From Eledone cirrhosa (Eukaryota): a DNA stretch of 64,000 bases. The first letter of the stretch is position 1; each line of letters opens with the position of its first letter. This document shows, one piece after another, positions 21,345 through 64,000 of the stretch. Under the pieces are notes generated by a model. The model searched no databases, was not told the DNA's origin, and saw only the letters and a list, made by a program, of their open reading frames with translations. The stretch is taken from positions 144,522,001-144,586,000 of the forward strand of contig OZ024743.1 in NCBI GenBank assembly GCA_964016885.1, in the 5' to 3' direction. Both the position numbers and the translations under genes were made by a program.

Positions 21345-21749
21345 ATTATATATATTTACTAAACAAAATCAAGAAGGCCGGAATGGAAATTTTGCTTTAG
21401 AATTTTGATTCCGTGATACCACCATACATATTTCGAGGGACCATCTCCATCATCCCATTATGATGCAAAACAGGCCGATCTCATCAGGCGACATCAACAG
21501 AATTACTTTAAAGGGTTACGTTGAACCCAGGCAGAGAATAGACGTTGAATATAAAAGAGAATAGGAAATTTAAATTAAAAATTCTTTTCAGAGACGACTG
21601 CCTGTAAAAAAAGCTGTTATATTGGCTATCCCCAAAAAGAATTTACAATTTTCTATTCTCTTTGCATGATTAAATGACAAAAGTAAGGTGTAAAATGATT
21701 TCGTCATTAACAGAGATATATAAATGATGTAACTGTTTTGTTCTTTCAG

Positions 21750-21860
21750 TTGATCCATGTAGTAGCAATCCATGCAAGAACGGAGCTAAATGTACAAACA
21801 AAGGAAATAAATTCCAATGTGAATGTCTTCCAGGTTACAGAGGAGACGACTGTTCCATTG
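21750..21860 (+). CDS. Array EGF exon 1 (RGD)
   Basis: ctttcAG|TT GAT CCA ... ATT G|GTCAGT; (V)[36 protein letters not shown]. Confidence 0.92.
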
Positions 21861-24180
21861 GTCAGTATTGTAAATCATAGTGATGCACTAAAAAGTGAAT
21901 AAAAATGTCGCATATTCATATAGAAAGATTTCACATGTTGTCTTTATATTTATATCTATATATATATGTGTGTGTGTATGTATGTATATGTATAGTTCTA
22001 TACATGTGTTTATTTATATATATATATATATATATATATATATATATATATATATATATATATATATATATATATATATATATATATATATATGTATATA
22101 TATATATATATATATATATATATGTATGTATAAATATCTATATCTATATATACCTATATATATAGTTTTATATAGTAAGGTGCATTATTGGTTGTGTAAA
22201 ATGGTCCAATAAATTTATGTTAGCAATATTAAGTTCTCTACGCTTTTGTATATCTCCAATTCTGTTCAAGGGAACAGCTAGATGATGAGAAAAATAACGA
22301 TGTTCTCTCACAGAATTCATTCGGAATTTAAGGATAGGTGGTATAATCACCGCCCTACCTTTAATAGATTAGATTTAAAAAAAATAGCACGGCACTTTCT
22401 GAATTAGTCTAGAAGCTTAAATATCAGAATATAGAGCACTCCTTATCCTGGTGCATAGTTTGCTCAGCCCAACATTATGACGGCAGCACTGGCGTCTGCA
22501 ATTTATGTGTAGCTGAAACCTTTAATATTATTAGAAGCGGCCCCCATTAATTAATAGGAGAGCTGATTTTTTCAGCAACTGCCAACATAGAACCTCGAAA
22601 ACTTTCCGCAGGATTTTTGGAAGGTAACCTACCACTAACTCTTCCCTCTCTACTTTAGCCATAGAGTTCTCTCAATAAACAGACAGTCACACACTCAGGT
22701 AGTTAGACGGCTAAGATTGTTTGCGCACTTACAAACGATAATCGGCCTGTTTCCACGGAGTTCTCACAGCTGAGTGCACTTTTTTAGAATACCTAGCTAG
22801 TAAATAGTTAGATTGATTACACACTTAGAATACCTAGTTAGTAATTGATTGCACCCAGAGGCATGACCGATTACGCGCACCTATCTTTACTTTAAGATAC
22901 CCTAACAATTGAGTTCTCTCAGTTGGGCTATAGCTAGTCGTAATACACACTTAGTTAGGACCAGTTACGCTCTCTTTACATAACTCTACACACAGTACCT
23001 GTTTCCTTTAGACATTGAGCTCCCACAATTGCGACTGTCACGTCCCTACCGATTGAACACTACACTAGGTCTTGATCCGTGATCATCTAACCATGGAGGA
23101 CTCACTGTTACGGATTGAACAATAATACTTACACACCATTAATGGGCCTACACACATCCTCTGGATTTTACTATCCTGTGTTTTTTTACTTCACCTTCTG
23201 TGTTGGATAACACACCTCCAACACTCAAACAACTATCTTAAAAGTTCATTGGCCCATTTGACGGGAAATCGCACTTACTGACGCATCTACCCAATACCCA
23301 ACCCTACACGGAGCCCCTGCTGGCCTACATTGTGGTTGCTTGCACGTACAGCACGTACAGATTTGGTGAGTCGGATTCTCAATGGGACTGCGGTACATAC
23401 TGAGTTCGATATGAGCTGATTGCTTGCTCTTCACATGGATGTGTATATACCCAGACATACCATTTTTTGGACGATACGGCTGTGTATATACCATAACATA
23501 CTCTTGAGGATATCGATGTTACAATTCAATCTATACACGTATAGCAGAACACTGAACTAAACTTACTTGCTTGTGTGTGTGTGTGTGTGTGTGTGTGTGT
23601 GTGTGTGTGTGTGTGTGTGTGTGTGTGTGTGTGTGTGTGTGTGTGCGTGTGTGTGTGTGTGTGTGTGTGTGTGGTGGGTATGGAGCGTTTGTTAACCCAA
23701 TATTTCCAATTTACATCGTCAAATTGAGATTTGACCAATGTAGCATCTGTTGTTTTGTGAACTAACTTTCGGATAATGTTGTGTTGGTCCAGGCTTATAT
23801 TTGTTTTTCTTTTCTGACATCGCTTCGGTGTGTGTGAGAGTGTGTGTGTACCCACCCACACTAACTGTGACCTTTATAATTCTACAGGTTTGATACTGTG
23901 TTGATGTGTGTATATATATGTATATATTTTTTTCTTTGACCTCGAGCCGGTGTATGTTGGTGTGGAGTGTGTGTGTACCCACTCACATTAAGTATATCCC
24001 TACAGATTTGATTGATGTCCAGCGTCTTTTGCAGCGATAGAATTCTGACAACTTTTATGACCTCAACTGAAGTTAATAGCAGTCGCCGTGTCTCTCACTT
24101 GTGTGTCTTCATATGAGGGAATGGATTCTGTGAGAGAACATAGTTATTTTTCTCCCTCATATCAAGAATTTTAAGACAAC

Positions 24181-61276: not shown

Positions 61277-61387
61277 TTGATCCATGCAGTAGCAATCCAT
61301 GCAAGAACGGAGCTAAATGTACAAACAAAGGAAATAAATTCCAATGTGAATGTCTTCCAGGTTATAGAGGAGAGGACTGTTCTATTG
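61277..61387 (+). CDS. Array EGF exon 14 (RGE)
   Basis: 111 bp, AG/GT intact, TAT AGA GGA GAG GAC. Confidence 0.9.
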
Positions 61388-64000
61388 GTCAGTATTGGTA
61401 TTTATAGTGATGCACTCATAAGTCTATAAAAATGTTGCATATTTATATAGAAAGATTTCACATGTTGTCTTTATATTTATGTCTATATTTATGTGTGTGT
61501 GTATGTATGTTTATGTATAGTTCTATACATGTGTTTATATATATATATATATATATATATATATGTATGTATAAATGTCTATATCTACATATACCTATAT
61601 ATATAGTTGTTATATAGTAAGGTGCATTATTGGTTGTGTAAAATGGTCCAATAAATTTATGTTAGCAATATTAAGTTCTCCAGGCTTTTGTATATCTCCA
61701 ATTCCGTTCAAGGGAACAGCTAGATGATGTAAAACGGAGTATAAGTATCAAAATGAAAATCCGAAGGCAAGGTAAAATTCCAATCATTTAATCACGACAC
61801 ATGTTTAAATAAGAGATAGATTGATTGTGAAGCCATGATCTATTATCACTGAACTCATCAGGGGAAAATGAGTTGTCTTCAAATTCTTGATATGAGGGAG
61901 AAAAATAACGATGTTCTCTCATAGAATTCATTCGGAATTTAAGGATAGATGGTATAATCACCGCTATAACTTTAATAGATTAGATAAAAAAAAAATAGCA
62001 CGGCACTTTCTGAATTAGTCTGGAAGCTTAAATATCAGAATATAGAGCACTCCATATCCTGGTCCATAGTTTGCTCAGCCCAACCTTATAACGGCAGCAC
62101 TGGCGTCTGCAATTTATGTATAGCTGAAACCTTTAATATTATCAGAGGCGGCCCCCTATTAATTAATAGGAGAGCTGATTTTTTTTCAGTAACTGCCAAC
62201 ATAGAACCTCGAAAACTTTCCGCAGGATTTTTGGAAGGTAACCTACCACTAACTCCTCCCTCTCTACTTTAGTCATAGAGTTCTCTCAATAAAAAGACAG
62301 TCACACACTCAGGTAGTTAGACGGCTAAGATTGATTGCGCACTTACAAACGAAATTCGGCCTGTTTCCACGGAGTTCTCACAGCTGAGTGCACTTTTTTA
62401 GAATACCTAGCCAGTAAATAGTTAGATTGATTACACACTTAGAATACCTAGTTAGTAATTGATTGCAACCAGAGGCATGACCGATTACGCTCACCTACCT
62501 TTACTTTAAGGTACCCTAACCATTGAGTTCTCTCAGTTGGTCTATAGCTAGTCGTATTACACACTTAGTTAGGACCAGTTACGCTCTCTATACATAACTC
62601 TACACGCAGTACCCGTTTCCTTTAGATATTGAGCTCCCACAATTGCGACTGTCACGTCCCTACCGACTGAACACTACACTAGGTCTTGATCCGTGATCAT
62701 CCAACCATGGAGGACTCACTGTTACGGATTGAACAATAATACTTACACACCATTAATGGGCCTACACACATCCTCTGGATTTTACTATCCTGTGTTTTTT
62801 TACTTCACCTTCTGTGTTGGATAACACACCTCCACCACTCAAACAACTATCTTAAAAGTTCATTGGCCCATATGACGGGAAATCTCACTTACTGACGCAT
62901 TTACCCAATACCCAACCCTACACGGAGCCCCTGCTGGCCTACATTGTGGTTGCTTGCACGTACGGCACGTACAGATTTGGTGAGTCGGATTCTCAATGGG
63001 ACTGCGGTACATACTGAGTTCGATATGAGCTGATTGCTTGCTCTTCACATGGATGTGTATATACCCAGACATACCCTTTTTTGGACGATACGGATGAGTA
63101 TATACCATAACATACACTTGAGGATATGGATGTTACAATTCAATCTATACACGTATAGCAGAACACTGAACTAAACTTACTTGCTTGTGTGTGTGTGTGT
63201 GTGTGTGTGTGTGTGTGTGTGTGTGTGTGTGTGTGTGTGTGTGTGTGTGTGTGTGTGTGTGTGTGTGTGTGTGTGTGTGTGTGTGTGTGTGTGTGTGTGT
63301 GTGTGTGTGTGTGGGTATGGGGCGTTGGTTAACCCAGTATTTCCAATTTACATCGTCAAATTGAGATTTGACCAATGTACCATCTGTTGTTTTGTGAATT
63401 AACTTTCGGTGAATACTGTGTTGGTACATTCTTAAATTTTTTTTTTTTCTGTGACCTTTATAATTCTACAGGTTTGATACTGTGTTGATGTGTGTATATA
63501 TATGTATATATTTTTTTTTTTGACCTCGAGCCGGTGTATGTTGGTGTGGAGTGTGTGTGTACCCACTCACATTAACTATATCCCTACAGACTTGATTGAT
63601 GGTCAGCGTCTTTTGCAGCGATAGAATTCTGACAACTTTTATGACCTCAACTGAAGTCAATAGCAGTCGCCGTGTGTCTCACTTGTGTGTCTTCATATGA
63701 GGGAATGGATTCTGTGAGAGAACATCGTTATTTTTCTCCCTAATATCAAGAATTTTAAGACAACTCATTTTCAGTTGATGAGATCAGTGATAATCGATCA
63801 CGGCTTCACAATCGATCTATCTCTTATTGAAACATGTGTCGTGATTAAATGATTGGAATTTTACCTTGCCTTCGGATATACCTAGATATATATATTTATT
63901 TAAAATGTATCGTCGACATTGCTGTATACATATATGTGTGTGAAGTTCGTATATCTAAAGATATACAGTATGATTAATAAATAAATATTCTGAAAGCTCA

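Follow-up and report, generated by a model that had tools for sequence, protein, structure and literature searches.

When one small coding exon recurs eighteen times in a gene, most of its copies being repeated together with their introns, the question arises whether such an array is a new repeat that is still growing or an old part of the gene whose units are repeatedly renewed. This question is raised by a 64,000-nucleotide stretch of the Eledone cirrhosa genome (contig C4, 144522001-144586000, in a 3.0 Gb genome; hereafter the window), which holds 14 of the 18 near-identical EGF exons of a large gene; coordinates outside 1-64000 continue the numbering of the window. We consider it probable that these exons form an old EGF array, in an octopod gene for a predicted secreted protein, whose units are continually replaced by copies of one exon-plus-intron unit. 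As judged by sequence comparison, the array is a case of intragenic concerted evolution.

A search of the window for the six-cysteine EGF pattern returned 16 instances, all on the plus strand (14 in the array and two after VWA exons), and none in 30 shuffled windows (0/30). The array comprises the following features.

21750..61387, plus strand: 14 array EGF exons, 111 bp each (Pfam PF00008, E 3e-10)
Starts at 21750, 25057, 28455, 31866, 35539, 39124 and 42551, plus strand: array exons 1-7
Starts at 45945, 49331, 50999, 54360, 56145, 59490 and 61277, plus strand: array exons 8-14
Starts at 64640, 66558, 71480 and 74208, plus strand: array EGF exons 15-18
74892-75002, plus strand: divergent last EGF exon
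51110..61387, plus strand: higher-order repeat, two nearly identical copies of a 5.1 kb block (a long unit and a short unit, two exons)
25551..27690, no strand assigned: dispersed mobile element with 175-bp inverted ends, making up most of the intron (example from unit 2)

All 14 array exons in the window measure 111 bp, are flanked by AG and GT, lie in phase 1-1 and encode six cysteines, without stop or indel. In full, the array consists of 18 near-identical EGF exons, which differ from one another by 0-5 positions per 111 bp, and the divergent last exon. Units, each an exon with its intron, are mostly spaced 3.3-3.7 kb apart, and the short ones (1.7-1.9 kb) are without part of the intron. 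Introns were compared in units 1-15, those of units 16-18 not being alignable; substitution differences reach 6.1% (mean ~4%) and 57 small gap blocks are present. The first-pass annotation, made from the letters alone, had described exons amplified with their introns behind two VWA-EGF modules, the exons intact in phase, splice borders and frame and the introns variable. This description held throughout, for 14 of 14 exons in tandem units and for the introns alike, and the two modules were found at 7590-9381 and 11330-13121.

A DNA search of the genome with one array exon gave 26 matches: 18 inside the array at 96-100%, the two VWA-linked exons at 81%, one on contig C1 at 98%, and five distant ones. 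The 3.4 kb unit is not copied in the introns that follow array exons 16-18, and exons 17 and 18 carry the array sequence, yet their facing flanks are alike over only ~40 bp. The intron after exon 16 also contains an inverted repeat, judged by eye to be long (several hundred bases) and nearly perfect (L011:4050-5180).

The mobile element (2.1 kb) lies, whole or truncated, at the same intron place in 15 of the 15 alignable units. A first look for its family in the genome gave 791 candidates, of which 40 were scored; dispersed full-length copies are 90-94% identical to the element query, as against 95-97% for the array copies. Since the element occupies one shared position in units 1-15 and the dispersed copies are less alike, a single insertion was copied through these units. 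Three open reading frames of the element and its relatives were assigned to no family by Pfam, and it may be a Penelope-like GIY-YIG element. Among the 11 long units, four-gamete incompatibility rises from 0.10 below 250 bp to 0.21-0.30 at 250-2000 bp, which suggests exchange between units, although recurrent mutation and misalignment can add to it. Only 5 substitutions and 3 microsatellite indels separate the copies of the 5.1 kb block (99.9% identity outside microsatellites), and the block is a recent duplication within the array.

The match on contig C1 (C1:252782435-252784289) is a dispersed copy, 1.9 kb long and 96% identical, of a stretch with exon 18, the last EGF exon and the adjoining intron; ahead of the exon, an AT microsatellite takes the place of the acceptor tract. 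Transport by the intron mobile element was considered and rejected for this copy, as the copied stretch, from exon 18 to the intron past the last EGF, is without the element.

By VWA identity, the closest protein is XP_036356789 of Octopus sinensis (~66-67%), whose cluster also holds XP_014774721 of O. bimaculoides. Both are likely orthologs, which resemble the present gene in having VWA, an EGF array, VWD and the same C-terminal domain order, and both map exon by exon onto the locus; they carry 21 and 26 EGFs, respectively, of the same 37-residue type. Identity over the C-terminal 535 residues is 72% to each of the two, versus 34-44% to five other family members. Neither RefSeq name, 'neurogenic locus notch homolog protein 1 isoform X6' for XP_036356789 or 'zonadhesin' for XP_014774721, fits the domain content, and the XP_014774721 model appears to be fused to an upstream gene, since it contains parts of P0073. 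What sets the present genome apart from the Octopus orthologs is a recent second VWA-EGF module and a different repeat consensus with four fixed residues.

Orthologs in both Octopus species imply that the gene is older than the split from them. The claim of a very young, actively expanding gene is thus not supported, these orthologs having 21 and 26 EGFs within the same flanking domains; recent duplication inside the array is supported, by the 5.1 kb block. From orthologous arrays of similar length between the same flanks, it follows that units turn over while the array stays about as long. In terms of the sequences compared, the long array would either be older than the Octopus split or have arisen twice.

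The Octopus orthologs were compared as proteins, and array introns in this genome alone. Per 37 residues, repeats differ on average by 1.07 within the array, as against 6.2 and 6.9 from the two Octopus arrays, and the nearest repeat is one of the same array for 18 of 18, never a foreign one. Residues A13, N20, Q23 and L27 occur in all 18 repeats and in none of the 19 internal O. sinensis repeats; relative to O. bimaculoides, three of the four differ from 22-23 of 24 repeats and the fourth from 24 of 24. A repeat tree was built from 45 rows unique within species and 37 columns, and its bootstrap had not settled. In this tree the first repeats of four species form one group (95/94) and the last repeats of three species another (96/90), the internal repeats of the present gene form one weaker group (82/89), and so do those of Argonauta (86/96); the two Octopus arrays are not separated, 11 of 19 and 11 of 24 repeats being nearer to their own species. 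The control was a paralog of this genome: its 61 EGF exons differ on average at 16.8 of 36 residues. Long EGF runs are therefore old in the family, and homogenisation is specific to the locus.

Besides its 61 EGF exons, which are divergent, this paralog (C4:1281483-1414953) has one VWA and the VWD-to-PAN end; in it, a small patch (1,385,398-1,393,497) of alternating, near-identical repeats looks like the beginning of local homogenisation. A lone VWA exon at C4:1482509-1483069, with one TAA stop and 60% identity to the window VWA, adjoins the gene that neighbours the ortholog in the O. bimaculoides model. It is possibly a remnant at the ancestral site, and a tree leaves it in an open fork.

The best-surviving alternative starts from an ancestor with few EGFs, from which this lineage and that leading to Octopus would each have recently expanded one internal exon, the similar counts being due to chance or convergence. 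All 15 alignable units do descend from one element-carrying unit, the block duplication with just 5 substitutions is a recent gain, and the Argonauta protein, marked partial, shows only 4 EGFs. We nevertheless regard this history as unlikely. Distinct first and last repeats are common to several species, divergent repeats are kept near the array start in O. bimaculoides, and a paralog holds a long old array; moreover, exons 17 and 18 carry array sequence on either side of an intron unrelated to the unit, which suggests older slots overwritten by conversion.

The state of the exons bears on a second alternative. Microsatellites were masked and coding changes were classed by hand. Across units 1-15, 185 of 1,198 fully aligned intron columns are variable versus 7 of 111 exon columns (Fisher p 0.007). 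Relative to the intron rate, nonsynonymous changes number 3 against 14.4 expected (P 3e-4) and synonymous changes 4 against 3.4; stop, splice or indel events number 0 against ~4 (P 0.019). Over 18 exons, the ratio of nonsynonymous to synonymous change (pN/pS) is 0.28 (p 0.04). The array exons are under purifying selection, which implies that they are translated. It is thus very unlikely that the array is a passive satellite in the gene, with most exons skipped or neutral and intact merely through youth. The units are young, and six nonsynonymous changes are found among the 18 exons (including G to A, E to G and T to I); but nonsynonymous changes are depleted while synonymous ones keep to the intron rate, disabling changes are lacking, the donor 9-mer is the same in 19 of 19 exons, and cross-species identity is ~83% for the repeats versus 66-72% for the flanking domains.

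The size of the array was compared with read depth in three runs (X1, X2 and X3) of unrecorded kind, all from one sample, possibly the assembled one. Ten of the 24 listed array pieces, those matching in full without differences, were used, with three pieces per run near the VWD exons as single-copy reference (mean depths 8.7, 7.3 and 13.0); such depth is not a copy number and rules out only gross expansion or collapse. For the exon piece, the ratio is 12.8 in X1, 13.5 in X2 and 9.1 in X3, versus an assembled 31-mer multiplicity of 14.2. Ratio and multiplicity for the other X1 and X2 pieces are 10.6/12.5, 10.7/10.8 and 12.5/12.5 (within 16%), and for the other X3 pieces 2.3/2.3, 3.5/5.6, 1.9/2.2 and 5.8/9.1. 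Read depth therefore fits the assembled copy number in X1 and X2, whereas X3 is low for three of five pieces, and the array size in the assembly may be wrong by one or two units. That all or part of the array is an assembly expansion or a mixture of two haplotypes seems very improbable, for although the 5.1 kb block copies are 99.9% identical outside microsatellites, the VWA-EGF duplicates differ by ~1% and the X3 ratios fall under the assembled multiplicity, most units are 2-6% apart, X1 and X2 come close to expectation for the exon piece and the three further pieces, and orthologs from other assemblies have as many repeats. Contig joints (for example 48589 to 50281, depth 4-5) are 20-30 letter overlaps in repeats and were not counted as a sign of a length allele.

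The array is embedded in a gene whose extension was sought in 200 kb on either side of the window. Its other features are listed below.

1..64000, plus strand: middle of the gene, spanning the entire window
-1323..-1293 and -1071..-1030, plus strand: two signal-peptide exons (hydrophobic N-terminus, ortholog-like)
7590..8156, plus strand: VWA exon 1, 567 bp, phase 1-1, DxSxS intact (Pfam PF00092, E 5e-48)
9271..9381, plus strand: EGF exon after VWA exon 1, a 'first-type' repeat grouping with the first repeats of other species
11330..11896, plus strand: VWA exon 2, a recent duplicate of VWA exon 1 with 2 exon substitutions
13011..13121, plus strand: EGF exon after VWA exon 2, identical to 9271-9381
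76416-105162, plus strand: seven 3' exons encoding VWD (two exons), C8, TIL, EGF-like, PAN and PAN (Pfam)

The resulting model has 32 exons in frame, 1,732 codons and 21 EGFs, with AG/GT at all internal junctions, and encodes in order a signal peptide, two VWA-EGF modules, 19 EGFs, VWD-C8-TIL, an EGF-like module and two PAN domains. The final ten residues are uncertain, as a possible donor follows the end residue of the O. bimaculoides protein. In Pfam searches VWD, C8, TIL and PAN_1 scored above cut-off on the 3' exons, and the EGF-like module was weak. The two VWA-EGF modules are 98.6% identical over a 2.2 kb duplicate, and between the second and the array lies an 8.6 kb intron that contains retroelement-like fragments; within it, at window positions 13800-17050, fragmented open reading frames of a non-long-terminal-repeat retroelement (endonuclease/reverse-transcriptase-like) were recognised by eye. 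DxSxS is present in both VWAs. At the site where the next downstream paralog has GDPH the model has GDSN, and GDPH occurs nowhere in it (n=0). A search of the model for a membrane anchor gave no hydrophobic 19-mer above 1.31 past residue 40, and one for a stretch rich in serine, threonine and proline (S/T/P) gave none, with at most 19 S/T/P per 50 residues. The O-glucose and beta-hydroxylation patterns fit 21 of 21 EGFs and the O-fucose pattern 0 of 21. The only match above 57% to the VWD exon in the genome is the exon itself.

As read from its domains and from one paralog peptide, the predicted product is likely a secreted cross-linker with an EGF spacer. A lineage-specific matrix or adhesion protein had been suggested earlier; the secreted matrix/adhesion make-up agrees with this, and the accompanying comparison with matrilins does not survive the 3' end of VWD-C8-TIL-EGF-PAN-PAN. 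In our judgement a mucus or epithelial coat is the foremost candidate site, at slightly less than an even chance, followed by general matrix or adhesive secretion at about one chance in three, and then, clearly less probable, by an egg or reproductive coat. VWD and VWA are enriched in the proteome of O. vulgaris skin mucus, according to the available part of PMC10138644. The next downstream paralog (C4:144658431-144700310, at 136-178 kb), with two VWD-C8-TIL blocks, a divergent VWA, one EGF and GDPH, matches a peptide of the skin-mucus table at 12 of 13 residues (PMC10138644). With the VWD exon as query for spliced products, only the O. sinensis cluster came back (1 of 73 candidates). For the VWA-EGF stretch, no RNA dataset that contains it was listed, which carries no information on expression. 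The oviducal 'ZAN' transcript of O. maya, as presented in the accessible part of PMC8976471, could not be tied to this gene.

Several points weigh against an old, continually replaced array in a gene for a secreted cross-linker. Only two complete ortholog arrays are at hand and they share one consensus, which leaves two independent lineages plus the partial Argonauta protein, and separate expansions in the two lineages keep some small plausibility. In X3, three of five pieces have depth ratios near two thirds of the multiplicity in the assembly. Domain content and a single peptide of a paralog are the basis on which the function is read, and in the portion of the skin-mucus table that was searched (PMC10138644) the ortholog itself was not found, with none of 3 accessions and none of 9 peptides.

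Under the reading of an old array whose units are continually replaced, which we retain, unequal crossing-over and gene conversion would keep replacing the units. One unit that had gained the mobile element would have spread through the array, its copies having since drifted ~4% apart. Phase 1-1 exons would keep the frame upon any gain or loss, and selection would remove damaged EGFs and probably hold their number near 20. In the predicted extracellular cross-linker, the metal-site VWA domains would bind at one end and the VWD-C8-TIL and PAN-PAN block would bind or assemble at the other. An EGF domain is ~3 nm long, and ~20 EGFs would thus provide a spacer of some tens of nanometres. Compared with X6, the O. 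sinensis isoforms X7 and X8 lack repeat 2 and repeats 2-4, respectively, and are otherwise the same; these are automated models, which near-identical exons can mislead, and on their basis control of protein length by splicing is possible, all exons being phase 1-1. A bolder proposal, which we find doubtful, is that the array is a selected molecular ruler, with ~20 EGFs kept between two binding ends even as all internal units are replaced lineage by lineage, and length tuned by alleles or splice forms, and that exon-level macrosatellites recur in octopod secreted VWA proteins; a second array, of ~65 near-identical VWA exons, lies on contig C107.

On this 165 kb contig, the ~65 VWA exons (by row count; C107:10283-152144) form two tandem arrays, one repeating about every 1.65 kb and the other every 2.8-3.2 kb. 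Their units are 98-99.7% identical with reading frames open in the 40 kb inspected, and constitute a second, larger exon-level macrosatellite. Upstream of the window, C4:144449587-144469007 (minus strand) is an inverted partial copy of the gene start with the signal-peptide exons and three copies of the VWA, of which one is frameshifted, one has no start, and one is open and has a changed metal motif (92% nucleotide identity). EGF exons were sought in this inverted copy and not found. Further VWA/VWD gene clusters lie at C4:319.99-320.90 Mb and C2:167.39-167.49 Mb, where more young tandem repeats are suggested by VWA exons with identical scores, 14 kb apart, on C4 and by VWD exons at intervals of ~33.5 kb on C2.

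Among solved structures, the VWA is most closely related to collagen VI alpha-3 and the mussel proximal thread matrix protein 1 (PTMP1). The pairing of VWA with EGF is matrilin-like; unlike matrilins, collagen VI and PTMP1, the present protein has a long EGF run followed by VWD and PAN, and no collagen helix. Matrilins carry a C-terminal coiled coil (PF10393). A matrilin was rejected, as the 3' exons encode VWD, C8, TIL, EGF-like, PAN and PAN and PF10393 is not listed for the orthologs. Notch is characterised by LNR, a membrane anchor and ankyrin repeats, and fibropellin by CUB and avidin domains. Both were set aside, such domains not being listed for XP_036356789 or XP_014774721 and no model exon being unassigned; whole-protein scans of the orthologs are weak alone, as they missed C8, TIL and PAN too.

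The VWD-C8-TIL assembly and the predicted secretion are shared with FCGBP, zonadhesin, gel-forming mucins and von Willebrand factor, and the lack of MAM and membrane anchor and the two terminal PAN domains distinguish the present protein from this group. Zonadhesin has MAM domains, a mucin stretch, several D domains and a membrane anchor. Here there is one VWD only, without mucin stretch or anchor, and every model exon is assigned to other domains, which excludes this identity. FCGBP and gel-forming mucins have a GDPH site, repeated D assemblies and a proline-, threonine- and serine-rich (PTS) stretch or cystine knot; they were likewise rejected, GDSN replacing GDPH in a single D assembly without any S/T/P-rich stretch. 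Bivalve 'zonadhesin-like' and 'IgGFc-binding protein-like' proteins match the VWD-C8-TIL part at 32-33%, and the ESM Atlas gave only generic VWD-C8-TIL clusters (0.75-0.77), taken as leads. A word-limited search with the C-terminal part returned 11 proteins: seven from octopods with VWA and VWD, six of these also with EGF, and four from bivalves or fish without VWA. In an alignment of eight proteins the C-terminal part spans ~530 residues in six and 330 in one, a partial protein being without it. By this domain content there is an octopod family, named here VWA/EGF-VWD-C8-TIL-PAN-PAN, with VWA and EGF modules ahead of the VWD block. No description of the gene or family was found in the literature searched, most subscription papers being outside its reach.

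As a mode of evolution, the closest counterpart is the KIV-2 repeat of human LPA, where several-kb exon-plus-intron tandem units hold exons 98-100% identical and are flanked by single-copy repeats of other types, according to the part of PMC4378929 available. Both cases repeat exon and intron together with near-identical exons; KIV-2 differs, in the same source, by two exons per 5.5 kb unit and 1 to >40 copies per allele, as against one exon per unit here. In abalone VERL (PMC2704960) and the PIGSFEAST region of Drosophila dumpy (PMC2930355), ~20 to 40 extracellular repeats are homogenised by unequal crossing-over or conversion, and VERL repeats 1 and 2 escape homogenisation (PMC2704960), as stated in the accessible parts of these papers. 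By the same partial sources, VERL repeats adjoin without introns and PIGSFEAST repeats lie within one large exon, whereas here introns and a mobile element belong to the unit.

LPA, VERL and dumpy have already shown the mechanism, and two Octopus genomes already hold an annotation of the gene, under names that do not suit it. The present locus adds a clean invertebrate case: exon and intron travel together, a mobile element in the intron dates the turnover, and a non-homogenised 61-EGF paralog of this genome serves as control. With it one can test whether selection holds the number of repeats while their sequence is replaced, and it directs attention to a family of large, secreted octopod proteins.

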